From Naegleria gruberi (taxonomy: Eukaryota): a stretch of 64,000 bases of DNA. The position numbers and the translations under genes were made by a program. Location: the NCBI GenBank assembly GCA_000004985.1, contig GG738870.1. One strand, 5' to 3'. Of this stretch, positions 2,496-64,000 are shown piece by piece. The notes beneath the pieces were generated by a model. That model saw nothing but the letters and a program-made list of their open reading frames with translations, was not told the DNA's origin and did no database searches. Numbering within the stretch: position 1 is the stretch's first letter; every line of letters begins with the position of its first letter.

Positions 2496-2566
2496 AGGGA
2501 GATAGTTCAGTGGTAGAACATGGGATTGTGGTTCCTAAGATCAGGGTTCGATTCCCTGTCTTCCTA
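2496..2566 (+). tRNA. tRNA-His (anticodon GTG)
   Basis: A cloverleaf can be folded by eye: acceptor AGGGAGA/TCTTCCT, D arm GTTC-AGTGGTA-GAAC, anticodon stem TGGGA/TCCTA with loop TTGTGGT (GTG), and T arm CAGGG-TTCGATT-CCCTG. The discriminator is A and there is no encoded G-1. An oligo-T Pol III terminator follows at 2571..2575. Confidence 0.8.
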
Positions 2567-3461
2567 CACCTTTTTAACAGCGTAATTTTGAATATGGTTG
2601 GTAAATAAGATTTGCTTGAATACTTAGTTGCGTCTAGACTACATTAACCACAAATTGTTTTTATTGGTCCAAAATCAAGTTTGACTAATCTTTATAATAA
2701 ATTCACAGATACTGTAACTCATTCCTATCTTGATTCTTCAGAATTAGTAAATATAGGTTCTCTCTTATTGTACTTTATATTAATTAGATTGTAAAATGAG
2801 ATAAAACAATTTTGCCAATTTTCTTTCTTCATTGACTAGGATTACTCGTCTGTTACGTTATTAATAAAATTTAGACCAATAACGGTTCCAAACTAATTAA
2901 CTATCTGAATACATGTTCCTTTTATCTGCATAGACCTATAGCCAATGAATATATCAAACAACTAACAAACGAAGACCTTAACATCTCCATTCTAATCCAA
3001 CTCAAATTGTTGAATGCTTCAAAAAAGAACAACTTGAAAAGATAACAGTAACAAAACAACTACTTGATGTTTAACCTTTTCATTGTAAAGTCTTTCATCA
3101 AACAACAAATAGATGTGAAAGTTGATAATCAACAATCAATACCTCACTTTTTTTTAAAATTCTTTAGTGGTGATTTTTTAAAATATCCAAAAATGAACCC
3201 GATTAACCGCTTGTGGCCTCTATCAAATTTTTTAGGCGCCATCTCGAACAAATAAGTCACTGACAAAGGAGGTTGTGCCATCAAATTCGCCTTATAAAGC
3301 TCTTATTAAGTTTGTTAGAATTTGTTGAGGTAAAATTTGATTCTTTAGTTTGATCCAAGAAGCTTGTTGAAGTACGTCCCCGTTGTTGTAATTCACTATA
3401 AAACGCTACTGGTTAGCTTCTAAAAAAAAGCACACAACAACAACAAATATAAACCTTAACA

Positions 3462-4439
3462 ATGCACAACAACTCTATTCACGAATATTTCCACGGTGTT
3501 CAATTGGCCGAATTGATTCCTGCTGGTCAAAAGCTCGTCGTCTTGAAGGAAGATGAAACCCTCCAAGAAGTTGTTAATCAATTGTCTACCCACCATCTCT
3601 TGGCTGCTCCCGTTGTTGATAAGCAAGGAAAGTTGGTCGGTATGCTCTCAATGCTCGACATTGTTCAATTCATTGTTGCTTCCTCACCAGAAAATGTTGA
3701 TTTCAAGAATTGGCAAGAACTCGAAATCTCAGGAAGATGTATTAACTTGCAAACTGTTAAGCACGTTATGGGATTCTCTGCTAGAGATCAATACATGCCA
3801 TTGAAGAGCAATCTCCCAGCCACTATGGCTATTGAATTGTTCGCCAAGGGTGTCCACAGAGCTATTGTAGAAGAAGACGTCACCACTGATAAATATATTG
3901 GTACTTTGTCTCAAACTGATATCCTCAAGAGATTGGCTGAACACCTCCACATGGGTAAGATGAAGCAATTGGGTGAACAATTGGTTAAGGATTTAGGTTT
4001 GGGTTTGGCTAAGCCAGTTACCATTGACGGAAGTGAAAATGTTTTGCACGCCATGAAGGAATTGGCTAAGGCTAATGTTTCTGCTCTCCCAGTTGTTGAT
4101 CACCACGGTCACTTAGTTGGTAACTTCTCTGCTTCCGATTTGAGAGGTTTCTACTTGGACAGAATTCCACACTTTGAACTTACCACTCGTACCTTCTTGG
4201 AAAAGTACTCACCAAAGTCTTTGGTTCCATTCTTTGTTGAATTGGATGGTTTGAAGTTTGTTGATTTGGTCAAGAAGTTGACTCACCCAGAAATTCATGA
4301 TGTTATCCACTCTCAAACTGTTAAGGTTGACCATTCCATGCACAGAGTTTGGGTTGTTTCTGATGAAAGAAAGGTTGTTGGTGTTATCACTCTCACTGAT
4401 ATCATGAAGGTTATTATTGACCATGTTGAAATGGACTAA
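3462..4439 (+). CDS. CBS-domain protein, AMPK gamma/SNF4-like (four CBS pairs)
   Basis: The 325-aa single exon carries the motif LIPAGQKLVVL...AAPVVDKQGKLVGMLSMLDIV and a later ALPVVDHHGHLVGNFSASDL. This matches the AMPK-gamma pattern LIPxxxKLVVxxxxL...AAPLWD...FVGMLTITD. Third codon positions are unusually C/G-rich (ctc, gtc, aag, ttc), which suggests high expression. Confidence 0.55.
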   Translation: MHNNSIHEYFHGVQLAELIPAGQKLVVLKEDETLQEVVNQLSTHHLLAAPVVDKQGKLVGMLSMLDIVQFIVASSPENVDFKNWQELEISGRCINLQTVKHVMGFSARDQYMPLKSNLPATMAIELFAKGVHRAIVEEDVTTDKYIGTLSQTDILKRLAEHLHMGKMKQLGEQLVKDLGLGLAKPVTIDGSENVLHAMKELAKANVSALPVVDHHGHLVGNFSASDLRGFYLDRIPHFELTTRTFLEKYSPKSLVPFFVELDGLKFVDLVKKLTHPEIHDVIHSQTVKVDHSMHRVWVVSDERKVVGVITLTDIMKVIIDHVEMD

Positions 4440-6183: not shown

Positions 6184-6384
6184 CAATAAAACTAACTCCG
6201 ACGGTAAACTGATTTTAACGTGTTACCTCTTGGAGTAATCCAATTATTCAATGATTTTCAAAGAACATAACACTTGAAAGTGTTGAAATTGGAATCAAAT
6301 GGCTCATCATACAACTGTGTTATTGTAAAGTATTACCACACAAAGAAGCTCTTCAATTTTGATATTTAATTTTTAATCAAAAAA

Positions 6385-7176: not shown

Positions 7177-7323
7177 ATTTTCATTTCAATTTCTCTTGAG
7201 AAATATGTGGCAGAAGTTACATAAAGATTGTCCTTATAATAAAAATCGAGTGGACAGAGAGAAGTGCCACACTTTGTGGTTAATGTAGTCTTGATCTTAT
7301 TTACCAAGCTGTCAAAAAAGGTG

Positions 7324-7394
7324 TAGGAAGACAGGGAATCGAACCCTGATCTTAGGAACCACAATCCCATGTTCTACCACTGAACTATCTCCCT
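7324..7394 (-). tRNA. tRNA-His (anticodon GTG), second identical copy in inverted orientation
   Basis: The reverse complement of 7324..7394 is base-for-base identical to the tRNA at 2496..2566. Immediate flanks are also similar (atgaaggg upstream, cacc plus T-run downstream). Confidence 0.8.
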
Positions 7395-7555: not shown

Positions 7556-10500
7556 ATGCCCTATAACACTAGACATCATTCTACTCCACGTGGATCATAT
7601 TCCAAATTTTTTGATGATGCTGAAGAGGAAGAAGAAGAAGAAGAAGAAGCCCAAACTAGAAAGGTAGGTTTTATACAATTACTCTTTGACCATATATCAA
7701 ACATATCAATAGCCTCCGACAAGGAGAACAAGTACAAGGTCAAGTCATAGAAATTCATCAAGTGATAGTGAGGAAATAGATGATCTGACATCTAAACGAT
7801 CAACAAGACAAAATAAACCAAGACATAACAGAATAGAACAGGAAGAACCTGAGGATGAGTATTCCGAAAGTATTGCTTCTTCAAGACCAAAAAGAACACC
7901 AAAAAAAACAACATATACTGATTTTTATACGGAAGACTATGATGAAAATTCGGATAAGGAAACTCCAAAATCATCAAGGAAAAAAGCACCAGCAAGAAGA
8001 ACAACTGGCACTAAAGTACAAATTAAAAGGGAATTAATTGAAGCACATACTAGTGAAATCCCGAATCCAACAATTGTACAACAGCCATCCGAACAAGTTG
8101 AAACATCAGTAATAACTTCTGGTGTTATTGATGACGTATTTAAAGATATTATTCCAAATAATCAACCTATCACTACTGAACAAAACAGTATACCAACTAT
8201 GGAATTTCCAACTAGTACCGTACCACCAAGTAATATGGAATTTGATACATCACTCAACAGAAGCCAAAGTGCTATTTCAGAGCAAAGTGATGATCATAAA
8301 GGCAAAAAAAGAAAAAAGAATGAGGAGGATGAGGATTTCGTTATGGATGATGATGAACCAGAGGAGGAAGAAGCCATTGAAGTATCTGATGAAGCTTTAT
8401 CAGATGCTATTTCTTCCAATGATGAATTAGAAATGAGACCAACAAGAAGTAGAAAAAAGCCAAAATTTATTGTGGATGATGATGAGGAATTGGAAGAAAC
8501 AGAAACACCAAAAGAGAATGGAAAGGATATTAAAAAGAGATTAAGGCCAAGAACCCAAGCTCAACTTAATCCTTATAGCCACCCTATTCCAAATATTGAC
8601 AATATTGAAATTCCATCAAAGAGTACTATGATAAAGGAACAACAAGAACTCTTGGCACCTTTAGATTCCTTAACATTCCAATTTTCAGAGTCTGAATCAG
8701 AATCTGACAACGATGAAACAGGTTTGGTCAATCCAGCATTTGGTAAGAAAGGAGAATATGATCACATTAAGCCAATCAATATTGAACAACTTAAAAAGAA
8801 ACCATCTGCTGATATTGATCCAGTTTTTTCCAAACCTGTTGGATTTGACATGGTTGGTGGTCTTCATAAGCACATTAATGCATTGAAAGAAATGGTAGTA
8901 TTACCCCTTTTATATCCAGAAGTATTTAACAAATTTGATATTACTCCTCCAAGAGGTGTCATATTTTATGGTCCACCTGGTACGGTAAGTTTTGAAATCA
9001 GATATATTGTAATATTAACAACTAATTTTAGGGTAAAACACTTGTTGCTAGAGCTCTTGCTAGCACCTGTGGTACTGGAACAGATGGAAACAAACCTATT
9101 GCCTTCTTTATGCGTAAAGGTGCTGATATCCTCAGTAAATGGGTTGGTGAAGCTGAAAAACAATTAAGACTTTTGTTTGATGAAGCAAAGAGACTTCAAC
9201 CTTCCATTATTTTCTTTGATGAAATCGATGGTTTAGCACCAGTAAGATCATCAAAACAAGATTACATTCACAGCTCAATTGTATCAACTCTTCTTGCACT
9301 TATGGATGGTTTAGATAGTAGAGGTCAAGTCGTGGTAATCGGAGCCACTAATAGAATAGACTCTATTGATCCAGCTCTTAGAAGACCAGGAAGATTTGAC
9401 AGAGAGTTACTGTTTACTCTTCCTTCTAAAAAAGCAAGAAAAGAAATTTTACAAATTCATACTAAGAATTGGGTACCTCAAATACCAGACGATCTGAAAA
9501 ATTACATTTCTCTAAAATCTGTTGGATATTGTGGAGCTGACATTAAAGCACTCTGTGCTGAATCTGCTCTTAACGCTCTTAAAAGATCCTACCCACAAGT
9601 TTATACCAGTCAATCAAGATTAGTTCTTGAGCTTGATACAGTAGAAGTTACGAAGGTAGATTTCCTAAGAGCAATGAAATCAATAGTACCAGCATCACAT
9701 AGAAATGCCGTAATTCATGCATCTCCTCTTCCAACTCAACTTGCTCCTTGCCTAAGCCAAAAATTAGAAATGGTTTTGAGAATATGTACAGATGCCTTCC
9801 CATTATGTATCAAAACCCTAGAGGATAAAGTTGATAATGAAGACCTCGTAATAGAAACTGGTCCAATTTTGGATGATTTTGAAGGAGTAGATGAAAAAAC
9901 ATTTGAAAGCAATTCAAACGATTTCTTTATCAATCCTCCAACATTCAGACCTTGGGTCTTGATTCACGGACAAAAAGGAATGGGTCAAAATCTTATTGCA
10001 AGTGCAGTTTTGTATAGTTTAGAAGAGTTCCCATTGTTCTCCCTAAGATATGAAAACCTTATTTCGAATACCTCATCTAGGAGCGAAATTGAAGCAATTA
10101 TTAATATTATTGCCGACTCTAGAAAGAATTCACCATCTATCCTTTGGCTTCCTAATCTTGATGAGTGGTTTGAAAAGAGTACAGATTTAATGAAATCTAC
10201 TTTGATTTCACTCCTCAATGAGATACCCTCCTCTGTATATGTGTTCGTCCTTGCTACTTGTAACTACTCTTCTGAAGAATTACCACAAGAATTCACTGAA
10301 TTATTTGCTGATTATAGATTTGAAGTTAGCTCACCATCCAAAGACGAAAGAGTTGAAATGTTCAAACCTATTCTTGCTGATATTGTTAGATCTCCACTTA
10401 AGAAAACAAAGGTTAAGAAAGTTTATCCAACTTTACGTTTGGCTCCTCCAAAAGAACAAAAATCCTCAGAAATCGAGCCAAGCAAAGAAAAGAAATTGCA

Positions 10501-21885: not shown

Positions 21886-21944
21886 TTTTTTAATAAGACA
21901 CTATGCTACTGGGATGTGTTATCATTACAGCAATATTAATAAAA

Positions 21945-22079
21945 ATGAATAGAGGATGTATGGATGTTAACAGTTTAGTAGTTGGAGGAGTACAGGATGT
22001 AAAAGACAATGTGGTCGGAGGATTCCACACTTTGAATAAGGCTACATCAATTTTGAAGAGAACACTTATCACCTGTTGA
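21945..22079 (+). pseudogene. partial paralogous copy of the GVQDVK-repeat first exon of the gene at 26296
   Basis: Region 21913..22070 is about 85% identical to 26254..26460, including the upstream ...ttacagcaa[t/c]attaataaaaATGaatagagga. It encodes MNRGCMDVNSLVVGGVQDVKDNVVGGFHTLNKATSILKRTLITC and then stops, with two repeat units against three in the parent. It lies in the intergenic spacer between the ankyrin gene and the EGF gene. Confidence 0.45.
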
Positions 22080-22499: not shown

Positions 22500-23783
22500 A
22501 TGAAAGTTTCAAATTTATTATTCATTTGTCTATTCCTATTCACTTTTGCTTACAAGTTGACTGTTGCCTCTAGCACTTCCAACATGCTACAACCAGTCAA
22601 TTTATTTCAGAAGAGAACATCTCAAGCAGTGTGCACATGTCCTAGATGTCCAGACAAAATTAACATCAACAATTTCTTGTTCTCAACTGAGGTGAATTGT
22701 CCCACCAAGTGTCCCACAGGCTATTACGTCAATGGAATGGATCTCTTGATTTCACCATTTAATGACTACCATACCTACATTATTGAAACTACATCCACTG
22801 ACACTTCAAACAAAATTAATGACTTGTCAAAAGATCAAACCAGATACAATCTTGGAGATTGTTTCAGTGCCTCTACTTCCTTAAATCTTGATACCACTGA
22901 TTACACTACCAAGATTACATGTAAGAATGCCATTACTCAATGCTCAGTTCAAGTGAAAAATGTTTGTTTTTGCTCCAAATCCCCTTCAAAATTGGTTATT
23001 ATTGCTCCTTCTCTTGTTGTGACTGGATCTAAATACACACCTGAAGTAAGAATTGTTGACAATGATGGAAATATAGTTCCAAGAAACTATCTCATTGAAT
23101 TCATTTCACCTGGTCAATCCTATACTTCTATGGCATCAAATGGTATCATGAAAGTTAATGAACTTATTGCCCCAAGCTCTGGTACTGTTACATTAAGAGC
23201 TTCTATCAGTTCTCTTTCAGGTTCTGCTCCTTCATTGACTTCTGCTGAGTTTACTGTCACTGTCACTCAATCCTTATTCACATGTTATGGTGCTTCACCT
23301 TCCAACAGTTCTGTTTGTAGTGGTAAAGGAACATGTACTGCTCAAGATGTTTGCTCATGTTTCACAGGATACAGTGGTAGTAAATGTGAAACATTCTCCT
23401 CAACCACTCAAGTTTCCAGCATTAAACTCTCAGTTCCCTCCACTGTGAATAGTGGTTCTCAATTTACTGCAACTGTTTCAATGTTGGATTCAAGTGGAAG
23501 TACCATGAAATCAGGTTCAGGAACTATCACTTTGGATATTGTTGGTGCATCTTCTGATGTTACAATGGTTGGTGATAAGTCCAAAGTGGCAGGTGAAGGT
23601 GTTGCTTCATTCTCTGTTCAATTGTCAACATTGACATCAACTTCGATCTCTCTAAAGGCGAACTATCAAACACTTTCAGATACCAAATCAGTTAATGTGG
23701 ATATATCCAGGACATCTCAATGTGCTGCCATTTGGAGTTATCTTTTCACAATAACCTTTTTTGTAATTTTATTTATTATCTAA
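22500..23783 (+). CDS. secreted Cys-rich/EGF-domain surface protein, probably GPI-anchored
   Basis: The N-terminus is a signal peptide (MKVSNLLFICLFLFTFAYKLTVASS). An EGF-like module follows (CYGASPSNSSVCSGKGTCTAQDVCSCFTGYSGSKCE), then S/T-rich repeats. The C-terminus is a hydrophobic tail (CAAIWSYLFTITFFVILFII) consistent with a GPI signal. Confidence 0.55.
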   Translation: MKVSNLLFICLFLFTFAYKLTVASSTSNMLQPVNLFQKRTSQAVCTCPRCPDKININNFLFSTEVNCPTKCPTGYYVNGMDLLISPFNDYHTYIIETTSTDTSNKINDLSKDQTRYNLGDCFSASTSLNLDTTDYTTKITCKNAITQCSVQVKNVCFCSKSPSKLVIIAPSLVVTGSKYTPEVRIVDNDGNIVPRNYLIEFISPGQSYTSMASNGIMKVNELIAPSSGTVTLRASISSLSGSAPSLTSAEFTVTVTQSLFTCYGASPSNSSVCSGKGTCTAQDVCSCFTGYSGSKCETFSSTTQVSSIKLSVPSTVNSGSQFTATVSMLDSSGSTMKSGSGTITLDIVGASSDVTMVGDKSKVAGEGVASFSVQLSTLTSTSISLKANYQTLSDTKSVNVDISRTSQCAAIWSYLFTITFFVILFII

Positions 23784-23838
23784 TAATAATAATATTGCAT
23801 TAAATAAATTTAATATTACAAAATTTAATTATTATAAA

Positions 23839-24177
23839 TGGATCAAGACTTCATTGACTCAAGTTATTTCTCAAATGATCTGACAAAGTCTAATAACATC
23901 AAGTCATGTATTAGAATAGTGTTCAAGTAGGTAATACCAGTAGTATTTTACGTGAATTTTATCATGAGCTTCCAAAGAAACATTCTAAGGGAGGTCAATC
24001 TCTTGAAAGATTTGCTAGAAATAGAGAAATTGCCAAGAATGAATATCTAAAGATTATTGCAGAGAAGGCAAATTCTTTATTCGTATCGCCAACTTTGAAT
24101 GCTCCAACTGTAGATGCTATTATTCTTGCTGGATGTGCTGAATTGAAGAATGAATTACTTTCTCTCAAATCTGATTG
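23839..24177 (+). pseudogene. eRF1 (peptide chain release factor subunit 1) domain-2 fragment with retained GGQ motif; frameshifted and truncated
   Basis: The frame open from 23915 gives VGNTSSILREFYHELPKKHSKGGQSLERFARNREIAKNEYLKIIAEKANSLFVS...AIILAGCAELKNELLSLKSD. This is colinear with eRF1 [33 protein letters not shown]...GLILAGSADFKTDLAKSELFD. An upstream ATG at 23839 opens a 30-codon +1-shifted frame (MDQDFIDSS...IRIVFK*) that may correspond to the preceding eRF1 segment. There is no N-terminal domain and no domain 3. It is far more diverged than a functional eRF1 should be. Confidence 0.5.
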
Positions 24178-24217
24178 TTTGGTAATAGTAAAATAGTAAA
24201 AAGTAACTAAGAGTGAT

Positions 24218-25313
24218 TTAGGTCAATTTGAACATGCCTTGAATTGCCTTGGCAGAGTAAGCTTCTTCCAAACTCTTCTTTTCTTCATCGGTTAATTGAA
24301 TTTCCAATGCTTGCACATTGAGTTCAATATTTACAGCTTTAGTGGCGCCAACAATTGGACAAGCAACACCTGGCTTGGAAAGCAACCAAGCAAGTGCAAT
24401 TTGAGCAGGTGGTACATTTCTCTTCTTTGCAATTTCTGAAACTCTTCTCAATGTTTCTTTATCACCCTCTGTTAAATTTTCCTTAAATATATTTTGGAAA
24501 TAATCAGAGGTAGCTCTCTTGGAATCAATTGCTTGTTCAGCATTGACAAATTCATGAGCACGAGCGAGCATTCCATTGGAAAGAGGTCCCCATGGAGTGA
24601 GAGAAACATGTTGGTCAACACATAATGGATTCATTTCTCTTTCTTCTTCTCTATAGATGAGATTGTGGAGATTTTGCATGGAAATGAATTTGGTCAATCC
24701 CTTCTTCTCAGCATAGTGTTGAGCTTTAGCAAATTGCCAAGCAAACATTGTGGAAGCACCAATGTATCTGACCTTTCCAGACTTGACTAAATCATGGAGT
24801 GTTTCCATAGTTTCTTCAATTGGAGTATTTTCATCCCAACGATGGATAATGTACAAATCAATGTCTATTCAATCAATCATTATTAATCAAATGAAATATT
24901 TCAGTAAACTTACAATCGAGACCTAATCTTTGCAATGAATCTTCAACTGCATGCATAATGTGCTTTCTGGAGAGACCAAAAGTGTTTGGTTTCAACTTGC
25001 TAAAGTCCATTACCATAGATTGTTCACCACTTCTGTCCACTGGAGCACAAACTTTGGTAGCCACAACAATTTCCTCTCTTGAAATGTTGAATTTCTTAAT
25101 GAAATTTCCTAAAATTCTTTCACTTTCTCCATTACTATAAACATTGGCAGTATCGAAAAAGTTAATTCCCAAATCCCATGCCTTCTTCAAAATGATCATT
25201 GATTCCTCTTCATTCAATACCCAAGGCATCCACTTGGAAGATCCAAAACTCATACAACCCAAACAAAGTTGAGAAACCTTCAAACCACTATTACCCAAAT
25301 TGACGTATTTCAT
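24218..25313 (-). CDS. aldo-keto reductase family protein, 2 exons (25313..24914, 24864..24218)
   Basis: Exon 1 gives MKYVNLGNSGLKVSQLCLGCMSFG...LQRLGLD. A GTAAGT donor and a gaatAG acceptor flank a 49-nt intron. Exon 2 begins YIDLYIIHRWDENTPIEETM..., matching the AKR consensus L.Y.DLY..H. Later AKR blocks follow (GKVRYIGAS; IALAWLLSKPGVACPIVGATK). Total length is 1047 nt, or 349 codons. Confidence 0.75.
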
Positions 25314-25426: not shown

Positions 25427-25528
25427 AAAATTTGTGCTCATATTTTCGCGAGCAGATTAATGTTTTGATGGTTTTGGATGGATATGATGATTTAAAATTG
25501 TGCTCACATTTTCACGAGCAGATTAATG
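25427..25528. repeat. imperfect 35-bp direct repeat (two copies, 67-bp period) upstream of tRNA-Met
   Basis: Copy 1 at 25427..25462 is aaaatttgtgctcatattttcgcgagcagattaatg. Copy 2 at 25494..25528 is aaaattgtgctcacattttcacgagcagattaatg. There are two mismatches and one indel. Each copy contains TTTTCGCG / TTTTCACG, an E2F-like half-site. Confidence 0.6.
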
Positions 25529-25675: not shown

Positions 25676-25748
25676 GGGGTCATGGCGCAGTCGGTAGCGC
25701 GTAGGTCTCATAATCCTAAGGTCGTGAGTTCGATCCTCACTGACCCCA
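25676..25748 (+). tRNA. elongator tRNA-Met (anticodon CAT)
   Basis: The fold has acceptor GGGGTCA/TGACCCC, D arm GCGC-AGTCGGTA-GCGC, anticodon loop CTCATAA (CAT) and T arm GTGAG-TTCGATC-CTCAC. The GCGCGT...GTCTCATAATC...AAGGTCGTGAGTTCGATCCTCAC core matches eukaryotic elongator tRNA-Met. A T5 terminator follows. Confidence 0.8.
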
Positions 25749-26106: not shown

Positions 26107-26295
26107 ATTAATGTTGCTAAATGGCTTTTAGGCTGTATTAAGACAGATGTTAAGAATTTGAGAATGAAAGTTGGTGCCCTGTTACAAGGTGCTCAGTCGT
26201 CTTTTAACAGACATTATCAATGGCTTGTTCTGTTTTTTAACGATAAAACATCTATGCTTCTTGGACGTGTTATTATTACAGCAACATTAATAAAA

Positions 26296-28680
26296 ATGAA
26301 TAGAGGATTTATAACGGAAGGTGTACAGGATGTTAAAGGTTTAGTGGTCGGTGGTGTTCAGGATGTTAAAGGCTTAGTAGTTGGAGGAGTACAGGATGTA
26401 AAGGACAAGGTGGTTGGAGGATTCCACACTTTGAATAAGGCTACATCAATATTGAGGAGAAAAATTATTAGTGATGTTGGAAATGCTAAGGAACTAAATA
26501 AGAAGGTGATCAGTTATTTTACAGGAAAAGAGAGTAGGTTGATGAAGAATATTATTTAATAATTAATAATTATAAATAATATTTTAAATAGAGGCTCTTG
26601 AACATCCTTCAACAATTAATTTTGCATCAGATGAATTTGATCCTGAGGATTGTAGGTTATCATCAATGTTTAATAATTCTGATTTTTAGATACTGATACC
26701 TTATTCACAAAATCCGATTACAAACAAATTGAAAGCAATTGGCTTGCAGGATTATCTATTGAACAAACAAAAGCAAAGGAAAAATTACAAGAATTAGTTT
26801 CAGATAATTATATACAATTCATTGATGCTTCAAAAGAGGTTTCAAGTTTTATGGATGTTGATTTGATTGAAATTGGTAATCTTGTAACTTCTATGAAAAA
26901 TGTTATTTCAGACATTGACTCAGTTGATTTGACTTTGGATTATAGATGTTTGTACCCAACTTTTAAAAGTGTTGATGTTGAGGCTTTAAGAGAAGTTGAA
27001 TATACAATGCTACCAGAATTGGAAATGATAATTTCTCAAAGACTATTTCACAAAGCAGCAGAATTGGTTGAATTAATAGATAAAAAACTAGTGTTGGAAG
27101 ATGATATCAAAATGGAAAAAGACTACAGAGCGTCACTTCAACAATTGAAAAAGAAATTCTACCAAAAAAGAATTGAACTCAGTGAATCTGTTTCTGAGTC
27201 GGTCAAAAGTGGCCTTTCCAGTAATAAGGATGTTAAATTATTGGAAAAAATTTCAGGAACAGAGATTGCTATTACAACTTATCTAAAAGGAAAAAAGGTT
27301 AGAATTAAGAATATTCTTACAAAGATAGAATGCAGAGGAAATGTTGAGGACTACACAAAAACAGCCTCCAAACATGTTTTCAAGATGATTGAAGTAGTTT
27401 GTGCGGAGTTTAGAGAGTTATTTACTGATGATACAAATACCTCTTTTTTTATTCAGTGGTCATTTGAGGTGTTAGAAAAATTAGTCTCCACTGTCAAAGT
27501 TCAAATATTAGGTCAACAATGTTTTGAAACCACATCTAACAGTATCAATGTTATCATTAAGAAGGCTCAACAGTTAGAAAAGATGGGTATCACAGTATCT
27601 TTCTACATACATAAACTGTTGTTACCTGATGTTGAGAAAACAATGAGACAACGATGTATTGAATTAAGAGAGGAGATATTTAGAATAGCTTGTTCTGAAT
27701 TATGGAATTACAAAAATGTTCCCTGCGATTTATTTGCTGTTGCCCTTCCAGATGTTGTAAAGCAATTGAAGGTGGGGCAAAGTTGCCTTGTATTTGTGAA
27801 TAGTATTCGTACTTTTATTATTAATTGTAGTTTAATAGTTTCCTCATATGTAAGTAATCACATACCAATATCTTACACCGTCAAGTCTTTCAATATTGTA
27901 AATATGTGTGTCACAGAACTCTTTGAGACTACCTTATCAAAATATTATGAGATTGGTTTGTCAAAAACCATTAGTGAGAAACAATTCTTTGTAATTTTAT
28001 CAAGTTCAAGGTTTATCTTACAAGGAATGTTGGAGGAGGTTTCAGAGATGTTAAAGGTTTGTTCTTGTAAACATATTTTCTCTTTAACATTTGATTAGTT
28101 ATTATTTGATAAGAATTTACCAGTAGAAATTACAATTCTTAAATCTAAAATATTTGGTTTTGATTCAAGATTGTTAGAGAAATATTGTGAGAACAAAGCT
28201 TTCAATTTAGTAGATGAAAAAATAGGATGGAATCACAGCTACATTGCTCAAGAAATATCATCTGTAACGAGTGTCAGCAAATTCTTTGCTCAGGTCATCT
28301 CATACTTTGATAAATTATCGAATCATATAGCTTCATCTTTTGACAAGGATTCTATCCCAATAATGAGGCTTTTCATTAAATATACGGTAGAATATCTTAC
28401 TGACAAGAGTAATGCAATGACAAGCATGATTGAGGATACAAAAGAATCAGCAAAGAAACATAAGGTTAATCAGATTATTCTTGATCTGAGCTACTTTAAA
28501 CAACAATTATCAAGCAGAGATTTTATTTCAGAGGAAGTAAGTATTGTTTTAATCATAATTATTTACCCATGATAGGATGAGGATACGATTATATCATATA
28601 TTGATTTCATAAGAGATTTAAACCATGGATCAGAGAGTGTGCTCTCTAATCGAGCAATTGAAGAGATACTTAATAAATAA
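26296..28680 (+). CDS. Vps51/Dor1-type vesicle-tethering complex subunit (GARP/exocyst/COG family) with an N-terminal GVQDVK-repeat exon; 5 exons (26296..26533, 26592..26651, 26690..28056, 28099..28536, 28576..28680). An alternative in-frame start lies at 26158.
   Basis: All donors and acceptors are phase-consistent (GTAGGT at 26534 and 26652, GTTTGT at 28057, GTAAGT at 28537). The joined product reads ...FTGKE|KALEHPSTINFASDEFDPED|YTDTLFTKSDYKQIESNWLAGLSIEQTKAKEKLQELVSDNYIQFIDASKEVSSFMDVDL.... This parallels the Vps51 N-terminus FDPEVYLDKL....LVYENYNKFISATDTIRKM. Total length is 2208 nt, or 736 codons. Exon 1 encodes MNRGFITE(GVQDVKGLVVG)x3... Confidence 0.5.
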
Positions 28681-55978: not shown

Positions 55979-56327
55979 TTGTTTGGTGAAATAGTACATA
56001 TTTAATTATTAATAAATATAATATTATACTATAAATAGACTAACCGTAATTGTATTTAACAATGTATTGTACAGTAAAGTTTCAAATTTATTAAGGGGTG
56101 GTTGATAAATTAATTGATGGTTCAATATTTGTTCATGATGATACATGTAGTTGTGGTTGTTAACATGTTCTTAATAGTGAGTGCACTGAACCAATGTTAA
56201 GAGATTGATTGTTATTTAATTGTTATATACTCTCGTTGTTGTGTGAGAGGAGTATTTGAACTTGGTGGTAGTTACTATTAAGATTAAGAATAATCATCAT
56301 CTTGTTCATCTTCATCTCTTTAAAAAA

Positions 56328-58564
56328 ATGAATGATCATCACAATGATGAAAACTCTAAGGAAAATATAGATTATATAAAACAATCTAATGATGATCAAT
56401 CCTTATATCTATTAAATACTACCATTACTATCACTACTACAACTTCTAATAATAATAATAATAATAATACTATTAATAATACTTTTGAAAATAATAATGA
56501 AAGAATACAAGATGAAGATGAATTATCACTTCATTTAGGACAAGAACATTTAAATAATAACACAATTACATATGATGAAGCTATTAATGAGTTAGGATTT
56601 GGTTTATTTCAAATTTTATTAATGCAAGTTTGTGGTGCTGGTTGTTTGGTAAGTTTTTATATATTAAATAAATTATTTAAGTAATATTAAATTATTTAAC
56701 ATTACAATATTTAATATATTATTGTAATAGTTTGATGGTATTGAATTATCTTTAATTTCATTTGTAATTCCAGGTATTAAACAACAATGGAATTTAAATG
56801 CTATTGAAACAGGTGCATTAGGAAGTATTGTATTTTTTGGAATGATGTTTGGTGCTTGGTTTGGAGGTTTTTTAAGTGACAAATTTGGAAGAAAATTAGT
56901 TTTTTGTAGTTCCATTTTTATTTCTTCTGTATTTTTATTAGCAAGTTGTTTTTCTGTTCATTTAGGAATGTTAATTACTTTAAGATTTTTTGTAGGTGTT
57001 GGTTTAGGTGCAATGGGTATGTTTTTATTTATACTTTCTATATTTAGTATTAATAATTTTATATTAAAAAATATAATTTAATAACAATTAATTTAAAAAT
57101 AATAATTTAATATTTAAAATAGTACCATGTGATTTTTCATTAATGTTAGAATTTTTACCATCTAAAAATAGAGGTGCCTTATTAGGATTATTACAAATAT
57201 ATTGGAGTGTAGGAGCAGCACTTGAATGTTTAATTTCCTATTTATGTATTGAAGTAATTTCTAAACAATTTGAAAAAGGAAATCTATTAAATGATGGATG
57301 GAGATGGTGCATGTTTTTTTCTTCCATATTTGGATTTTTAATTTTCTTTTTAAGATTATTTGTTCCAGAATCTCCAAGATTTTATTTAATTAAAAGAAAT
57401 TTTGAAAAAGTTGATCAAGTAATTGAAAAAATTTCAAAATTAAATAGAAAATCTTTAAATGATAAAAAAGTAAGATTAGCAACAACTACTAGAACACAAT
57501 CTTCAATGAAATTATTTTCCAAATCAAGAGATTTCCAAATTGAGATGACACATCAAGAAGAATTTAAATCTTTAACTATTTTTAATCAATTTAAAATGTT
57601 ATTTTCAAAGGAATTTTTATTTTCAACAATATTATTATTTATTATTTGGTTCATGTTAAGTTATGGTGGTTGGGGTTTTAATTGTATGTTTTAATATTAA
57701 TTTATTAATTTTATTTAATTTAATTTTATTTTAATTTTATTTAAATTTTATTTAATTTAATTTTTTAATATTTTTAAAATAGTTTTAATTCCAATTGTAT
57801 TTGAAAAAATTCAACATAATAATGTATATTTAAATTCCTTTTATGTAACAAGTGTTGGATTTATATCGAATATATTAACATTATTTATTATAGATAAAAT
57901 GTCAAGAAGAACACTTATGGGAATAACATTTATATTTACAGGAATATTTACAGCCTTAGTAGGAGTATCAAATAATCCATATTCAGTTTTAACATTTTCA
58001 ATGTTAGCAAATTTCATGTCTTCATTTCCATGGGCATTATTATATACTTATACTCCTGAATTTTATCCAACTTCAATTAGAACAACTGGAATGGGTGCAT
58101 GTTCTGTTTTTACTAGATTAGCAGGTGCAATTACTCCAATGTTTGGTACTTTGGTTTTAGAATCTGGTTATTTCATTCCTTTTTTAACTTATGGAATTGC
58201 TTTAATCATTGCTGGTATTTGTTCTTTTTTATTAAGAAAGGAAACTTTAAATTCTACTTTACAAGATGTTTCAATTCATCAAAAATCAAAAGAAGAATAT
58301 TTTTATTCTGAATTATCTTTAAATGAACCTATTTTAAATGATTTAATTCAACAAGATGATAATAATACTAATAATACTAATAATAATAATAATATGGAGG
58401 AGGATGACAACATGGATGAACAGAGTCAACAAACAAGTCATAACATTAATAATAATAACAACAGCATGTTATTTGAAAGAAATGTTTCTATTGCTACTGA
58501 GCCATCAATGAAACAAGATGAAATTGATTCAAATGATTATGTTATTGCTTCAAATAAATTCTAG
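56328..58564 (+). CDS. MFS transporter (SV2/SVOP / SLC22-like), 4 exons (56328..56648, 56731..57016, 57123..57683, 57783..58564)
   Basis: An N-rich cytosolic N-terminus precedes 12 TM-like segments. MFS motifs are present (GFLSDKFGRKLVF; LRFFVGVGLGAMG; PEFYPTSIRTTGMGACSVFTRLAGAITP). The donors are GTAAGT, GTATGT and GTATGT, and the acceptors are atAG, aatAG and aatAG. Total length is 1950 nt, or 650 codons. Confidence 0.7.
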
Positions 58565-58730
58565 TTTCATTCAGCTTTTCAAACATTGTATTTCAATTAA
58601 ATTTCAATTAAATTTCAATTTTATTTTTTTAATAAGGAAGTAAACAAGTAATTTAATATTGTCATACAAGAGCCTTTCTTTTAAATTTACAATATGCTTA
58701 GAGTTTTTTGACCAATGTAGTCAAAAATAA

Positions 58731-59681
58731 TTAAAAAGTACCAGACATGTTAACAGAACCACCGAATAGAACTGAACGTGTAGGGAATGATTTAGTACCA
58801 CAACTCATTGGTTTGAAAATTGGTTTCTTTTGTTCCTTTTCATCCTTTTTAGATAAAGTTCTCTTATCATATGGATCTTCAATATAAGCAGGGAAATCAC
58901 TTCTTTGTTTAACAGGAGATGGATAGAATGGTTTTCTCTTATCTTCATTTTCCTTCTTTGGTGAAGAAGATTCCTTTTCTAATGCCTTTTTAATTGTTGC
59001 TTCAACTTTATCATCTGTACCTAAAATTCTAGGAGCAGCAACAGATTTATGAGTATCAAAATAATCTAAATGATGTGATGATGAAATAAAAGCCTTCTTT
59101 GCAACTTGTTTAGCCTTTTCATTTTCCTTTTCCTTTTTCTTTTCCATTGAATGATCAAATGGATCAGTTTCGTATTTGTATTCTGTACCTCTTGAAATTG
59201 TTAAACCTAAATATCCAAATGTACCTCTTTTAGGTGGAGATGTATAAATTGGTCTCTTTTGTTCCTTAATTGGTTGTGGTTTTTCACCCTTAGCTAAAAC
59301 TTCATATTCTTGTTCATGTTGAAAAACAGAACCAATTGTACCATAATATGTTCCCAAGCCTACTGATTTCTTTGGAGGTGATGATGGTTTAAATGGTGTC
59401 TTGTGTGTTTGTTGTACTTTAACCTCATTTTCCTTTCTATACTTTCTTTCATTGGTTCCTGGATCCATATAAGGATCACCTTCATAAAGTGATTTAAAGT
59501 CTCCAAATGTAATTCCTTTACCAACTTTACCTCTCTTTGTTGGTCCAGTTAAAAATTGTTTACCAAGTGTTCTACCATCTTTCATTCGTTGGTCTCTTAA
59601 TATTTTACTCTTATCATATTCATCACCAATTGTTGTATATCCTAAATCAACTGGTTCGTTAACGTTTGGTTTGTTACTCAT
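58731..59681 (-). CDS. hypothetical basic repeat protein, possibly a CFAP96/C4orf47 (DUF4586)-like ciliary protein
   Basis: The ATG at 59681 gives MSNKPN.... The track ORF starts at an upstream GTG. Modules of the form P.K+G..G...F.....DP(Y/F)D recur (GKQFLTGPTKRGKVGKGITFGDF...GDPYMDP; IYTSPPKRGTFGYLG...ETDPFDH; KPFYPSPVKQRSDFPAYIEDPYDKR). The family assignment is tentative. Confidence 0.4.
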   Translation of the reverse strand: MSNKPNVNEPVDLGYTTIGDEYDKSKILRDQRMKDGRTLGKQFLTGPTKRGKVGKGITFGDFKSLYEGDPYMDPGTNERKYRKENEVKVQQTHKTPFKPSSPPKKSVGLGTYYGTIGSVFQHEQEYEVLAKGEKPQPIKEQKRPIYTSPPKRGTFGYLGLTISRGTEYKYETDPFDHSMEKKKEKENEKAKQVAKKAFISSSHHLDYFDTHKSVAAPRILGTDDKVEATIKKALEKESSSPKKENEDKRKPFYPSPVKQRSDFPAYIEDPYDKRTLSKKDEKEQKKPIFKPMSCGTKSFPTRSVLFGGSVNMSGTF

Positions 59682-60381
59682 CTTATTGTTATTTTTATGA
59701 TTGTCGTCGTAATATTGTAGTAAATTTACAGTCACCGTTAGAGCGGTAAGGTTTTATATAAATACACTCTCTGAGGGTGTTGTGTTGTTGAGGTATTTTT
59801 TTTAAGATTGGTTTTTAAAACGTAACTGTAGATTTTTTATTCTCTCCCTCAGAGTTCGTTAATAACTGAAAAACTTTACAAGACGTAACGGCAAGTGTCG
59901 ATAAATTTCATCATTTCTCTCTCTCGTACATTTTCAATCAGCAGCAATTAATAATATTTGATGATTGCTGCTACAATCAGTTGATGATTTTAAATATAAT
60001 ATAATATTAAGGAGGATTGATGCTTAATAATAATAATCATGATTCTTAAAGGAACAATATTAATTGAATATATATTAATCAAATAGTGTAACGGTAACAC
60101 GTAAATTTCAAATGTTGATTTGGCGCTAAATTTCAAATCCATCAATGGTCATCAAATTTACTTCTAATTTGAATTTCTAAATATTAAATCAATTATTCAA
60201 AATATAAATATGAAGGAAATCCTTCAAAATATTTAAAGGGAGTTAAATATTTTACACTCTCTTGAACAAAATAACATTCAATTAAAATAATAATATTTAA
60301 AATTAAATTCATTTTAATATTTTACAATTTACTATATTACACAATCAATAATCATTTAAAATAATCATTTAAAATAATAAT

Positions 60382-60592
60382 NNNNNNNNNNNNNNNNNNN
60401 NNNNNNNNNNNNNNNNNNNNNNNNNNNNNNNNNNNNNNNNNNNNNNNNNNNNNNNNNNNNNNNNNNNNNNNNNNNNNNNNNNNNNNNNNNNNNNNNNNNN
60501 NNNNNNNNNNNNNNNNNNNNNNNNNNNNNNNNNNNNNNNNNNNNNNNNNNNNNNNNNNNNNNNNNNNNNNNNNNNNNNNNNNNNNNNNNNNN
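60382..60592. other. assembly gap (211 N)
   Basis: A run of n interrupts the 3' part of the Ras-like CDS. A 16-bp direct repeat (aatcatttaaaataat x2) abuts the left gap edge at 60346..60381. Confidence 0.95.
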
Positions 60593-61209
60593 CACTTGTT
60601 TCAAAATAGGGAGTATCAGATGGTAATTGTAATTCTTCTACAATATATTGTAATGCTTCTTTCTTTGTTATTATTCTTTGATCTGCTAAATCACATTTAT
60701 TAGCAACAATAACAAATGGAACTGAAGTATATAACATGTTATCTTCTTTCACTCTTTTAATTCCCTCTACAAAATTAATTAATTCTTCAAGTGATTGTTT
60801 CATTGTAACATCAAAAACAAGTACAAATCCATCATTTCTTCTCATATATGTATCTCTTAATGCTATTATTATTATGTTATGTTATTATTATATTATTATA
60901 TTATATTATATTGTTATTATTATTTAAATAATTAAATTGTAATAAATTATTATTATAATATTATTAATATTAATAAATGTTATTAAACATACCAATAAAT
61001 TCATCTTGACCAGCAGTATCAGTAATTTCTAATTGTACAACTTTATCATCAACTTTAATTTGTTTCTGATATGAATCTTCTATTGTTGGATCATATTGAG
61101 CTTGATAATAATGTTGTACGAATTGAATTGTTAAGGAACTCTTGCCAACACCACCCCCACCTACTACTGCTATTTTATATTCTGCTTGTTTTCTATTTGA
61201 TGATGACAT
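60593..61209 (-). CDS. Ras-family small GTPase, 3' end lost in gap; exons 61209..60993 and 60862..(gap)
   Basis: Exon 1 is [79 protein letters not shown] donor and a taatAG acceptor flank a 130-nt AT-rich intron. Exon 2 is [20 protein letters not shown]...[14 protein letters not shown]..., matching Ras SAMRDQYMRTGEGFLCVF...NKCDL. G1 to G4 are present; G5 and the CAAX box are presumably in the gap. Confidence 0.65.
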
Positions 61210-61572
61210 TTTTTTAATTGTTGTTTTAATTGATGATGGAACATGTCGCAAAGATCTTGTTAAATGTCATCGAGACAGGATATGAACTTGTGAAGTTTGT
61301 TCAAATACTTAGAATGAACACAAGCACCTCAACTATTTGAACATATTATTACATGTAGAGAAATTGGTTCCATGTTCATTAGTTTTTTGCAAGTCAATAA
61401 ACTGTTGAATATTTGGAAGAGTATTAATAAGGTATGTAATGAAGAGATGTATTGTAGCAGGAATTTTCACATTATTGTAAATGAATTGGTCTCTTAATTC
61501 CTTTATTGAGTACGGAATAATAAGAACTGAAGAAGGCTCCACACTCACTATAACAACATGACCGTATAACTA

Positions 61573-62817
61573 ATGCACACACCCAGTGAGTATATTAATG
61601 AAATTCTCTATGAAAAAAAAATGTCTCAACGTTATGAAATTACAGAATCATCTAAAAGCCTTGATGAAACTATTAAGGAAATTATAAGTGATGCTAAAAA
61701 TCCACTTTCATGTACAATAACATTATCAGATGAATGTTATAATCAAAATTTAACTATTATTGAATGTTCTAATATTAAACAATTACAAATATTAAAAGAA
61801 CGTAATTCAACTAATAATACTAATAACAATAATAATAATACAGCAAATAGTAATAATAACAATACAACATCTACATCAACTGCCCATAATAATACTTCAA
61901 CATCTACTACTACTGATTATAGTAATATTATTAAAAGTGATATTTTATTAAGTAATGAAAATATAATTGAAATTACTAATAATACCAATGATTATACAAA
62001 TATAGAATTTAAAAATTTAACATTTAAAACTAAAGAAGGAACAAATACAATTTTATTTAATAATATAAATATAAAATTAATTAAATGTCAATTTTATGGA
62101 ATTCAATTACAATTTAAAGGTAAATGTAATATTGAAATTGATGAATGTGATTTTAAATATTCACAATTAAATGGAATTGAAATTACTGATGAATCTAAAG
62201 CAAATATTAAAAATTCTATTTTTAATTCAAATGATAAAAATGGAATTAGATTAATTAAAAATAGTAAATTAATTATTGATAAAAGTACATTAAATAATAA
62301 TTTAGGTAATGGTATTGTAACACAAGATGAATCTAATTTAAATATTACAAATTCTATTTTAAAATTTAACCAAACTTATGGTATTTTAACTTACCATAAA
62401 AGTTATATTAATATAAATAGAAATATAATATCTAATAATAAACAAAGTGGATTATATTTAACAAATACAGATAATAAATCAATAATTAAAGATAATCAAA
62501 TAATTAAAAATGAAGAACATGGTATTACTATAGGAGGTATTTCTAATTTAGGAGAAATGGAAATATTAAATAATGAAATTAATAATAATTATTATTATGG
62601 TATTCATGTAATTGATGGAGTTGGTATTCCAATTAAAATAGAAGGTAATAAAATAATTGGTAATCAAAGTGGACCATTAAAAGATGATACTTTAAATGGT
62701 GATTTAAATTTTAAAAATGTTCAAGAATTTATTCAATTTATTAATAAGAATTCACAAGTTTTAACTTTAAATAATAATGATTTAAAATTTAATAATTCAA
62801 ATTGTTTATTAAATTAA
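61573..62817 (+). CDS. parallel beta-helix (PbH1/CASH) repeat protein, N-rich
   Basis: Repeated N.I..N...GI.L units appear (NGIEITDESKANIKNSIFNSNDKNGIRLIKNS...GNGIVTQDESNLNITNSIL...GLYLTNTDNKSIIKDNQIIKNEEHGITIGG...YGIHVIDG). This is the right-handed beta-helix architecture of FBXO11 and SHCBP1 CASH domains. An alternative start lies at 61621. Confidence 0.5.
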   Translation: MHTPSEYINEILYEKKMSQRYEITESSKSLDETIKEIISDAKNPLSCTITLSDECYNQNLTIIECSNIKQLQILKERNSTNNTNNNNNNTANSNNNNTTSTSTAHNNTSTSTTTDYSNIIKSDILLSNENIIEITNNTNDYTNIEFKNLTFKTKEGTNTILFNNINIKLIKCQFYGIQLQFKGKCNIEIDECDFKYSQLNGIEITDESKANIKNSIFNSNDKNGIRLIKNSKLIIDKSTLNNNLGNGIVTQDESNLNITNSILKFNQTYGILTYHKSYININRNIISNNKQSGLYLTNTDNKSIIKDNQIIKNEEHGITIGGISNLGEMEILNNEINNNYYYGIHVIDGVGIPIKIEGNKIIGNQSGPLKDDTLNGDLNFKNVQEFIQFINKNSQVLTLNNNDLKFNNSNCLLN

Positions 62818-64000
62818 TAAAATTTAATTGTTCTTTTAATTGATGTGGTGATTGATTTGAATGATTTGAATGGTGTGATTGAGTTGAATGATGATGTAAA
62901 TGATTGAGTGAATGACTAGTTGAATGATTGATTGAATGATTTAAATGATTGATTGAATAATGTAATCTTGTTGTTTGTGGTTGTACAAGTGATGTTGATG
63001 ATTGTTTTAATTCTTCTTCTTTTTGTTTTAATTTATTAAATTCTACTTGTTCATTATTATTTAAATGTAATTGTTCAATATTTAATTGTTCATTTTGTAA
63101 TTGTTCATTCTGATTATTTAATTGATTATTTAATTGATTATTATAAATATATAAAAAACAATAAGATTGTGAAATCATAATCCATTCTTCAATTCCATCA
63201 AACATTGGATGTTTTTTATGAATTAAATTTAAAATTTTATCATTTTTAATAATTAAATTATAAATATTAAATAAATTATCACATGCAATTAAATGATTAT
63301 TTTGTAAATAATATTTTGAAAATCTTTGTAATTGTTCTTTTAAATCTTTACTAATAGAATTAAATGGACAATTTCTTTTATTTAAATTATTTATCATTTG
63401 TTTACCATAATTATTATTTTCATCTATAATTGGTTCATATATTAAAAATCTTGTATTTTCTTTAAATAAATTATATATAGTATCTATTAATTCATTACTA
63501 TCTTTAGTATTCATATAACATAATGATACTTCACTTATAAATAATGTTTTTATATTTAAATTACAATTATTTATTATTATATTTTTAAATAATTCAATAT
63601 CATTTAAATTACATGATTCTAATATATAATTTATATTTATTTTATTATTATTTAAATTATTTAAATTATTATTTATATTTTTATTATTAGTTATATTTTT
63701 ATTATTATTAATTAAATTAATAAAATTCTTTTTATTTTGAATAACATTATTAAAATCTAAATCAATTAATTTAATATTTATATTAACATTTAAATTATTT
63801 AAAAATTCATTATTATTTAAATAAAAATATAAAGTATCATAACCGCAACCTAAATTAATAATTTGTAATTCATTAAATGTATTATTATTATTTAATTCAT
63901 TATTTAAATTATTTAAATTATCTAAAATATAATGTAAAACTAATTGTTTAATTAATTTATATCTAATATAATAACCTTTAATTATAATAGGAGATGTTAA
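62789..64000 (-). CDS. LCMT1: leucine carboxyl methyltransferase 1 (PP2A methyltransferase), 5' end beyond window
   Basis: The minus frame is open from the window edge. It reads ...GYYIRYKLIKQLVLHYILD...QIINLGCGYDTLYFYL...ISEVSLCYM...FLIYEPIIDENNNYGKQMINNLNKRNCPFNSISKDLKEQLQRFSKYYLQNNHLIACDNLFNIY. This is colinear with LCMT1 NRGYFARVHGVSQLIKAFL / QIVNLGAGMDTTFWRL / ISECVLVYM / [59 protein letters not shown]. It has large N/K/I-rich insertions and a His/Ser/Asn-rich tail. Its last 29 nt overlap the 3' end of the convergent beta-helix CDS. Confidence 0.7.
   Translation of the reverse strand, partial: LTSPIIIKGYYIRYKLIKQLVLHYILDNLNNLNNELNNNNTFNELQIINLGCGYDTLYFYLNNNEFLNNLNVNINIKLIDLDFNNVIQNKKNFINLINNNKNITNNKNINNNLNNLNNNKININYILESCNLNDIELFKNIIINNCNLNIKTLFISEVSLCYMNTKDSNELIDTIYNLFKENTRFLIYEPIIDENNNYGKQMINNLNKRNCPFNSISKDLKEQLQRFSKYYLQNNHLIACDNLFNIYNLIIKNDKILNLIHKKHPMFDGIEEWIMISQSYCFLYIYNNQLNNQLNNQNEQLQNEQLNIEQLHLNNNEQVEFNKLKQKEEELKQSSTSLVQPQTTRLHYSINHLNHSINHSTSHSLNHLHHHSTQSHHSNHSNQSPHQLKEQLNFINLINNLNY

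Follow-up and report, generated by a model that had tools for sequence, protein, structure and literature searches.

We report that positions 23844-24182 of the window (the whole stretch of Naegleria gruberi DNA that was analysed, 64 kb in length) very probably constitute an eroding pseudogene; i.e., a partial duplicate of a Naegleria eRF1-like paralog for which the intact N. gruberi copy is P0273. We arrive at this verdict because two copies of the fragment are available that carry independent disabling lesions and display progressive deletion. The comparison of intact family members suggests, moreover, that the parent genes would themselves depend on a +1 ribosomal frameshift just past their NIKS codons.

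The best-preserved part of the relic is an eRF1 M-domain segment with an intact KKHSKGGQS loop (23930-24182, + strand; Pfam eRF1_2, E=2.5e-17), contained within a + frame open for 93 codons (23915-24193, stop at 24194-24196) that reads NSVQVGNTSSILREFYHELPKKHSKGGQSLERFARNREIAKNEYLKIIAEKANSLFVSPTLNAPTVDAIILAGCAELKNELLSLKSDCLVIVK. Within this frame lies ELPKKHSKGGQSLERFARNREIAKNEYL, with the GGQ codons at 23990-23998. Against the GGQ frame, Pfam eRF1_2 scores 63.9 bits (cut-off, 27.1 bits) over profile positions 19-93 of 133, and solved eRF1 structures match it with E values of 6e-15 to 5e-12; the resemblance to eRF1 is far above chance. The proposal that some 85 codons are colinear with eRF1 domain 2, intact KKHSKGGQS included, is thus borne out. 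In a tblastn search of the 64-kb window with human eRF1 (serving as a probe only), a single block was returned (23930-24157, 45% identity, E=3e-13), with no N- or C-domain eRF1-like sequence elsewhere in the window. The relic and its immediate neighbours comprise the features below, in window coordinates, for which L001 (541 nt, GCA_006365155.1) is the contig bearing the second copy of the relic and L007 (SRR17423268) is a contig bearing an intact relative.

22500-23783 (+): upstream neighbour, gene for a 427-aa secreted EGF-like protein, the stop of which lies 55-60 nt before the relic
23838-23930 (+): incidental 30-codon mini-ORF, the ATG of which is window-specific (TTG in L001)
23844-23928 (+): block A, parent N-domain NIKS helix (blastn to L007 and ORF1 protein match)
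23877-23878 (+): 1-nt deletion (caaatg-atc), from alignment with L001 and the parent and from frame translations
23910-23914 (+): destroyed recoding site, reading ATT/AGA in the window after loss of 5 nt (TAACA) between 23912 and 23913
23915-24196 (+): open frame holding block B, 93 codons, of which the last 4 (VIVK) and the stop are non-eRF1
23928-23930 (+): junction of a ~350-nt internal deletion (blastn block coordinates; junction sequences)
23930-24182 (+): block B, M-domain segment with KKHSKGGQS (blastn to L007, identity to P0273, Pfam eRF1_2)
24182-24183 (+): 3' breakpoint, at which homology to the parent and to L001 stops
24218-25313 (-): downstream convergent neighbour, aldo/keto reductase (AKR) gene, the stop of which lies 35 nt from the relic 3' breakpoint

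A word-index protein search with the fragment yielded a single relative, P0001, encoded on L001; the parent family surfaced in an exhaustive HMMER search and not in the word-index search. The best HMMER match was a 376-aa Naegleria lovaniensis protein (XP_044545318.1; 75% identity, E=3e-31), with canonical eRF1s at 41-50% identity to the fragment. Used as a query in turn, the N. lovaniensis protein recovered the family, namely N. gruberi P0273 (annotated 'eukaryotic peptide chain release factor subunit 1'), P0272 and P0274 from Logan assemblies, P0275 from a metagenomic Naegleria-like gene, and the Willaertia copies P0276, P0124, and P0277. Block B is identical to P0273 at 79/84 aa (94%), to P0274 at 90.5%, to the N. 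lovaniensis protein (P0122; C9374_008678) at 75%, and to the Willaertia protein (Willaertia magna ABK040_015578) at 67%, and has in common with this heterolobosean paralog the signature KKHSKGGQSxERFARNREIAKNEYLK. The original prediction had expected an intact gene elsewhere, with which the fragment could be compared; P0273, with orthologues in N. lovaniensis, Willaertia, and others, is such a gene, and the 94% is the outcome of the comparison.

Canonical eRF1 proteins (human, yeast, and plant structures, e.g., 1DT9 and 8IP8; P0302 of Acrasis kona) share the eRF1_2 domain, the GGQ loop, and the NIKS remnant with the relic, and block B is 45% identical to the canonical eRF1 of both the heterolobosean Acrasis and human. 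With the motif skeleton kept at ~45% identity, one might envisage an ancient duplicate of the canonical working eRF1 that has decayed heavily, its low similarity reflecting long neutral drift; we consider this extremely improbable. The closest relative is instead an intact, divergent Naegleria gene (94% versus 45%), to an orthologue of which block B is 85% identical at the nucleotide level without gaps. The loop is not of canonical type, being replaced by the KKHSKGGQS.ERFARNREIA signature of the heterolobosean paralog, and the nearest neighbours of the relic are Naegleria members. Neutral drift to 45% could not, moreover, spare 93 open codons at 32% GC, and a rough NJ tree sets the parent clade, which has an N-domain insertion, apart from canonical eRF1s, that of Acrasis included. 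The low similarity to canonical eRF1 was therefore inherited from the divergent intact parent P0273, and was not brought about by decay as had been claimed. Of the two origins originally put forward, the remnant of a divergent GGQ-family paralog stands, and the old decaying duplicate, if of canonical eRF1, does not.

By virtue of its M domain (eRF1_2) and GGQ loop, the relic belongs by sequence to the eRF1/aRF1 superfamily. Dom34/Pelota proteins have an eRF1-like fold without GGQ and NIKS; the relic has the GGQ loop and a relic of NIKS, and its every best match is an eRF1 and not Dom34/Pelota. A functional eRF1/aRF1 would possess complete N, M, and C domains in one translatable frame, of which the relic has left the NIKS helix and 75/133 M-domain profile positions, in pieces spread over three frames with no usable start codon. 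The label "eRF1 gene" is wrong for it and should not be applied in annotation.

As a separate matter, Willaertia magna P0276 (457 aa), P0124 (389 aa), and P0277 (226 aa) are near-identical copies on three contigs, with P0277 a truncated, internally deleted version. Partial duplication and erosion of the eRF1-like gene may be recurrent, or the Willaertia copies may be haplotigs.

The architecture of the parent explains the frame structure of the relic. The intact relatives (8 genes from independent assemblies) are all split into two ORFs just after NIKS, at N-UU UAA C. On the N. lovaniensis contig L004, an 80-aa ORF with eRF1_1 ends in ...TKASNIKSSL-TAA, and the 376-aa ORF takes an internal Met as its start; directly from the stop, the sequence of the +1 frame is ...NRKSVETATRTIIGRLKQIKTPPNGLAVFCG, without a start codon of its own. 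The frame-break sites are located as follows.

L004 (N. lovaniensis): 9895-9912
L005 (SRR29240419): 9895-9912
L006 (Willaertia): ~6205-6222
L007 (SRR17423268): ~163-180
L008 (metagenome): ~3605-3622
L009 (metagenome): ~2021-2038
L010 (distant metagenomic gene): ~274-291
L013 (distant metagenomic gene): ~203-220
L014 (distant metagenomic gene): ~64-81
Relic: window 23901-23915

The genes on L010, L013, and L014 are much more distant (~37-40% aa identity), and the neighbours of that on L014 are eukaryotic. The site consensus is invariable (AAG TCN NGY [C/A/G]TT TAA C). The true stops of 8/8 genes are TAA A, and TAA-C is the rarest TAA context in the long ORFs of the window (2/34). A +1 shift on N-UU U gives proteins of 448-513 aa that are exactly colinear with canonical eRF1, in which NIKS is followed by 16 residues and RLK as in human and in which GTS, N/RIKS, YxCxxxF, GGQ, and the acidic C-terminus are retained. 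Conserved residues reach the site in both frames, and one Pfam eRF1_1 alignment spans the ORF1/ORF2 junction. Upstream of the stop, pairwise differences by codon position number 160/124/236 in frame 0; beyond it, the count in the +1 frame is 221/126/318. Coding constraint therefore switches from frame 0 to +1 at the site. The parent genes thus display the sequence attributes of a prfB-like shift, i.e., a slippery P-site codon, a weak-context stop, an ORF2 without a start, and a colinear product. From these sequence patterns, expression of the intact parent genes most likely requires +1 ribosomal frameshifting at N-UU UAA C.

Other causes of the frame break were considered. Sequencing error was rejected, as the 8 independent assemblies agree. 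A tiny intron would need GT..AG segments of 13-19 nt that are inconsistent between species and remove the conserved NRxSV, and the 58-nt intron of the Willaertia model would take out the NIKS helix, in which changes fall mostly on third codon positions; we dismissed both as unlikely. Independent initiation of ORF2 was excluded.

Public gene models conceal the site. In N. lovaniensis (L004, 9667-11131) it is hidden by two separate genes (80 aa and 376 aa), in N. gruberi by a P0273 model that starts at an internal Met (MVNP...), and in Willaertia (L006, 6001-7432) by a 58-nt GT-AG 'intron' that deletes the NIKS helix. A different pattern was observed in the environmental eRF1 genes on metagenome contigs L015, L027, L031, and L043, with in-frame TAA/TAG inside conserved N-domain sequence; this is typical of reassigned stop codons, e.g., those of ciliates, and is unrelated to the relic.

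Set against this architecture, the two blocks of the relic are colinear with the intact gene on L007. Block B aligns gap-free with L007 548-800 at 85% nt identity (blastn, E=4e-82). Window 23844-23936 aligns with L007 99-203 at 70% with gaps (blastn, E=1e-6; 76% and E=6e-17 for the L001 copy of block A), and the protein reading of block A matches ORF1 of L004-L009. Both the NIKS helix and the two sides of the recoding site in the paralog find their match in block A, which reads IKTSLTQVISQM in one frame and DLTKSNNIKSCI ... NSVQV in another (NNIKS at 23892-23906; L007 counterpart, ...KTSLTQVLSQMDQRYTKSNNIKSCL), the 1-nt deletion after 23877 dividing it between the two. Relative to the paralog, the relic is without the 5' end, starting at the 'KTS...' helix before NIKS, and without ~115 internal codons that comprise the last part of the N domain and the first part of the M domain (parent L007 ~198-547), the rest of the M domain, and the C domain. 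In sum, the C domain is absent altogether, the N domain is reduced by half, the M domain is incomplete, and the frames are broken.

The upstream mini-ORF (23838-23930, +; 30 codons, MDQDFIDSSYFSNDLTKSNNIKSCIRIVFK and a stop) drew no support from Pfam in any frame, and was recognised as the NIKS helix through comparison with ORF1 of the intact genes. The original prediction had tentatively taken it for the preceding eRF1 segment in a +1-shifted frame: it is indeed eRF1-derived, but ~115 codons have been deleted between it and the GGQ frame such that it does not immediately precede, and the offset is +2/-1, not +1. By the same token, the supposed absence of the NIKS-bearing N-domain does not hold, as SNNIKS in the mini-ORF belongs to the parent NIKS helix; the supposed absence of domain 3 does, with no C-domain sequence in 64 kb. 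The offset itself has two sources. L001 keeps, between its NIKS piece and its NRNSVQ-VGNT... piece, the +1 offset of the intact genes; the +2/-1 of the window results from this inherited +1 plus the 5-nt deletion. One half of the shift of the mini-ORF therefore goes back to the inherited recoding site, and the other to damage sustained afterwards. The parent site (C/ATT TAA CAG G) is kept as ATT TAA CAG G in L001 and is lost from the window. An ORF1 ending NIKSxx-TAA-C with a +1 continuation, as found throughout the paralog, is thus no longer present in the relic, from which 5 nt including the TAA are gone, and this is part of the reason to regard the window copy as a dead derivative.

The second copy bears on the fate of the relic. 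L001 is 95.2% identical to window 23794-24182 over 396 nt, and the two have in common 45 nt of non-eRF1 5' flank; L001 therefore represents the same insertion in another strain or a close species. The internal deletion is also the same, with an identical junction, as are four derived residues relative to P0273. L001 nevertheless differs from the window copy in its lesions, with its GGQ codons disrupted by one additional G and its frame interrupted by a TGA, and it retains the 5 nt missing from the window. On its 3' side, L001 runs on with eRF1-like DYRLRT*IVTVVDVACGG, matching human DQRLQSKVLKLVDISYGG, and its M-domain match reaches Pfam profile position 116. Since the split of the two copies, block B has accumulated ~5 non-synonymous versus 3-4 synonymous changes, plus indels; though these counts are small, they suggest an absence of purifying selection.

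The intact GGQ loop and the 93-codon open frame could nonetheless be taken to favour a functional element, whether an exon of a spliced or recoded eRF1-like gene or a GGQ-only mini-protein, particularly in a family that most likely uses recoding and in which frame breaks alone are hence no proof of death. We hold this to be very unlikely. The GGQ frame has no Met codon with which to start, no other eRF1 pieces occur within 64 kb, and the recoding site is destroyed in the window, where the frame relation is +2/-1 rather than +1. The L001 copy has different frameshifts and an in-frame stop, and large portions of the three domains are missing. The relic is, furthermore, confined to 434 nt between convergent genes. 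An open frame of 93 codons at 32% GC with an intact loop could hint at residual constraint; it is equally expected of a young copy, and the loop is frameshifted in L001. The non-functional state originally proposed is thereby upheld (no start codon, broken frames, and missing domains), and spliced exons for the N-domain or domain 3, by which it would have been overturned, were not found within the 64-kb window.

The gap of 434 nt between the stop codons of the EGF-like and AKR genes is mostly filled by the relic, and there is no room in it for a complete eRF1 gene. The AKR gene has a 49-nt GT-AG intron (24865-24913). The surroundings are those of ordinary host DNA, with a window GC of ~32% and a eukaryotic gene content that includes genes for an Exo84-like protein, a USP5-type hydrolase, a P4-ATPase, a PS decarboxylase, and an ankyrin protein. 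The USP5-type ORF is 76% identical to that of Naegleria fowleri and 67% identical to that of Willaertia magna, which by itself places the window in a heterolobosean of the Naegleria group; in the Willaertia USP5 neighbourhood synteny is not kept on the relevant side. In such a position, convergent transcripts could overlap, and a regulatory role may be imagined in which antisense or small RNAs from the convergent 3' UTRs act on the mRNA of the parent eRF1-like gene, to which 85-94% similarity has been retained. This is pure speculation with little probability in our estimation: indels and a 3' truncation set the two copies apart, and neither points to a conserved structure.

Several other elements were observed in the window. 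A direct repeat of ~170-220 nt (90-91% identical; 21901-22069 and 26252-26468), the second copy of which holds 33-nt internal tandem units, brackets a 4.35-kb segment comprising the EGF-like gene, the eRF1 relic, the AKR gene, and a tRNA-Met. The short ORFs of the repeat have no Pfam match, and the repeat could be a dispersed element or a duplicated spacer relevant to local rearrangement. A 35-nt motif occurs twice (91% identical; 25428-25462 and 25494-25528, 66 nt apart), 150-250 nt upstream of the tRNA-Met(CAU) at 25676-25748 (+). Two tRNA-His(GUG) genes, at 2496-2567 (+) and 7323-7394 (-), lie in opposite orientation ~4.8 kb apart. Over the last 8 kb (56000-64000), GC drops from ~32% to 15-22%, with ORFs of 140-414 codons still listed; for one of 241 aa (62789-63514, -), no Pfam match was obtained.

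We propose the following history for the pseudogene. A copy of the eRF1-like paralog would have come to rest in the 3' intergenic space between the convergent genes and been whittled by deletions, with loss of the 5' end such that it began at the 'KTS...' helix, and with removal of the ~350 nt separating the NIKS helix from the GGQ-bearing part of the M domain. Later, in the window lineage, the 1-nt and 5-nt deletions and the loss of everything 3' of 'SDCL' would have followed. Lacking a start codon in the GGQ frame and spread over three frames, the relic encodes no protein and is at most a passive passenger in the 3' UTRs of its neighbours. The homology, breakpoints, frame disruptions, and structure in common with L001 are directly observed; the order of events and the mode of duplication (at the DNA level or via cDNA capture) we infer. 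Neither a poly(A) tract nor a target-site duplication is visible at the relic, with the window copy 3'-truncated and the L001 contig ending inside the gene, and contig ends of the parent family show no clear poly(A). The parent ORF2 is intronless, hence intron loss is uninformative as to a processed-retropseudogene origin. In its form, the relic is the same as the ordinary unprocessed or fragmentary pseudogenes of compact protist genomes, differing in nothing essential; i.e., a frame-broken partial copy shrinking in a spacer. It is thus a routine pseudogene, of practical value for annotation, the divergence of which is not to be taken as antiquity.

The frameshift proposed for the parent genes has a bacterial precedent. 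Bacterial prfB, encoding RF2, undergoes an autoregulatory +1 frameshift at CUU UGA C. The parent family is organised in the same manner, with a short ORF1 closed by a stop that has C as its next base, a P-site N-UU able to re-pair on UUU, and the remainder of the release factor in the +1 frame without a start of its own; the parent heptamer is the UAA analogue of CUU UGA C. It differs in encoding a factor of the eukaryotic/archaeal type, in using UAA as the stop, and in having an ORF1 of 70-80 codons that includes NIKS, and no Shine-Dalgarno-type stimulator applies to it.

Since eRF1 genes are present in giant viruses, in some cases with a frameshift at CUU UAA C, and a virus infecting Naegleria exists, the fragment might have been captured from a giant virus as an endogenous viral element. 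We judge this exceedingly remote. Neither the fragment nor the family alignment retrieved a relative when scanned against IMG/VR. The 20 giant-virus eRF1 loci retrieved from IMG/VR with a broader alignment are all of canonical type, with none showing a NIKS-adjacent frameshift: 18/20 carry a NIKS-like motif and read on in frame, and the other 2 are likewise without such a shift. The nearest relatives of the relic are cellular genes in a conserved chromosomal context, with a Laminin_G_3/C2 gene upstream in N. lovaniensis, SRR29240419, and ERZ27315067, and the DNA around the relic is that of the host. A partial duplicate of the cellular paralog thus remains our reading of its origin.

The viral systems are of interest for the mechanism in the parent genes. 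The class-I release factors of Mimivirus (R726) and Megavirus (mg280) use a +1 frameshift at CUU UAG C and CUU UAA C, respectively, a mechanism then regarded as otherwise exclusive to bacteria, with eukaryotic release factors described as free of internal stops (Jeudy et al. 2012, PMC3521657). For such a frameshift, a 2016 recoding review cites the giant virus only, and the literature searched yielded no case in which the eRF1 of a cellular eukaryote had been reported to need a frameshift. The Megavirus CUU UAA C heptamer is identical to the Naegleria and Willaertia site; the viral genes differ from the parent family in also needing UGA readthrough and in having been described without a close cellular relative.

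Ultimately, Naegleria and its kin possess a fast-evolving and presumably second eRF1-type factor, which keeps every stop-recognition and catalytic motif, the gene for which is interrupted at a conserved CUU/AUU/GUU UAA C, and which we found in Naegleria, Willaertia, and more distant uncultured eukaryotes; a canonical eRF1 is expected in Naegleria as well, given that Acrasis has one. That the relic is the fossil of a cellular eukaryotic class-I release factor paralog requiring a conserved prfB-like +1 frameshift after its own NIKS, and forming a termination-efficiency sensor or autoregulatory loop, is a proposal drawn from sequence comparison that we regard as evenly poised between right and wrong. 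Precedents for such a loop come so far from bacterial RF2 and Mimivirus/Megavirus alone. If programmed, the shift would be, within the literature searched, the first autoregulatory circuit of the prfB kind in a release factor of a cellular eukaryote, and would supply a cellular counterpart to the Mimiviridae factor that was reported as unique. The common CUU UAA C heptamer would then raise the question of a joint origin with the giant-virus factors, and culturable amoebae, the pathogen N. fowleri among them, would allow the frameshift to be tested directly.
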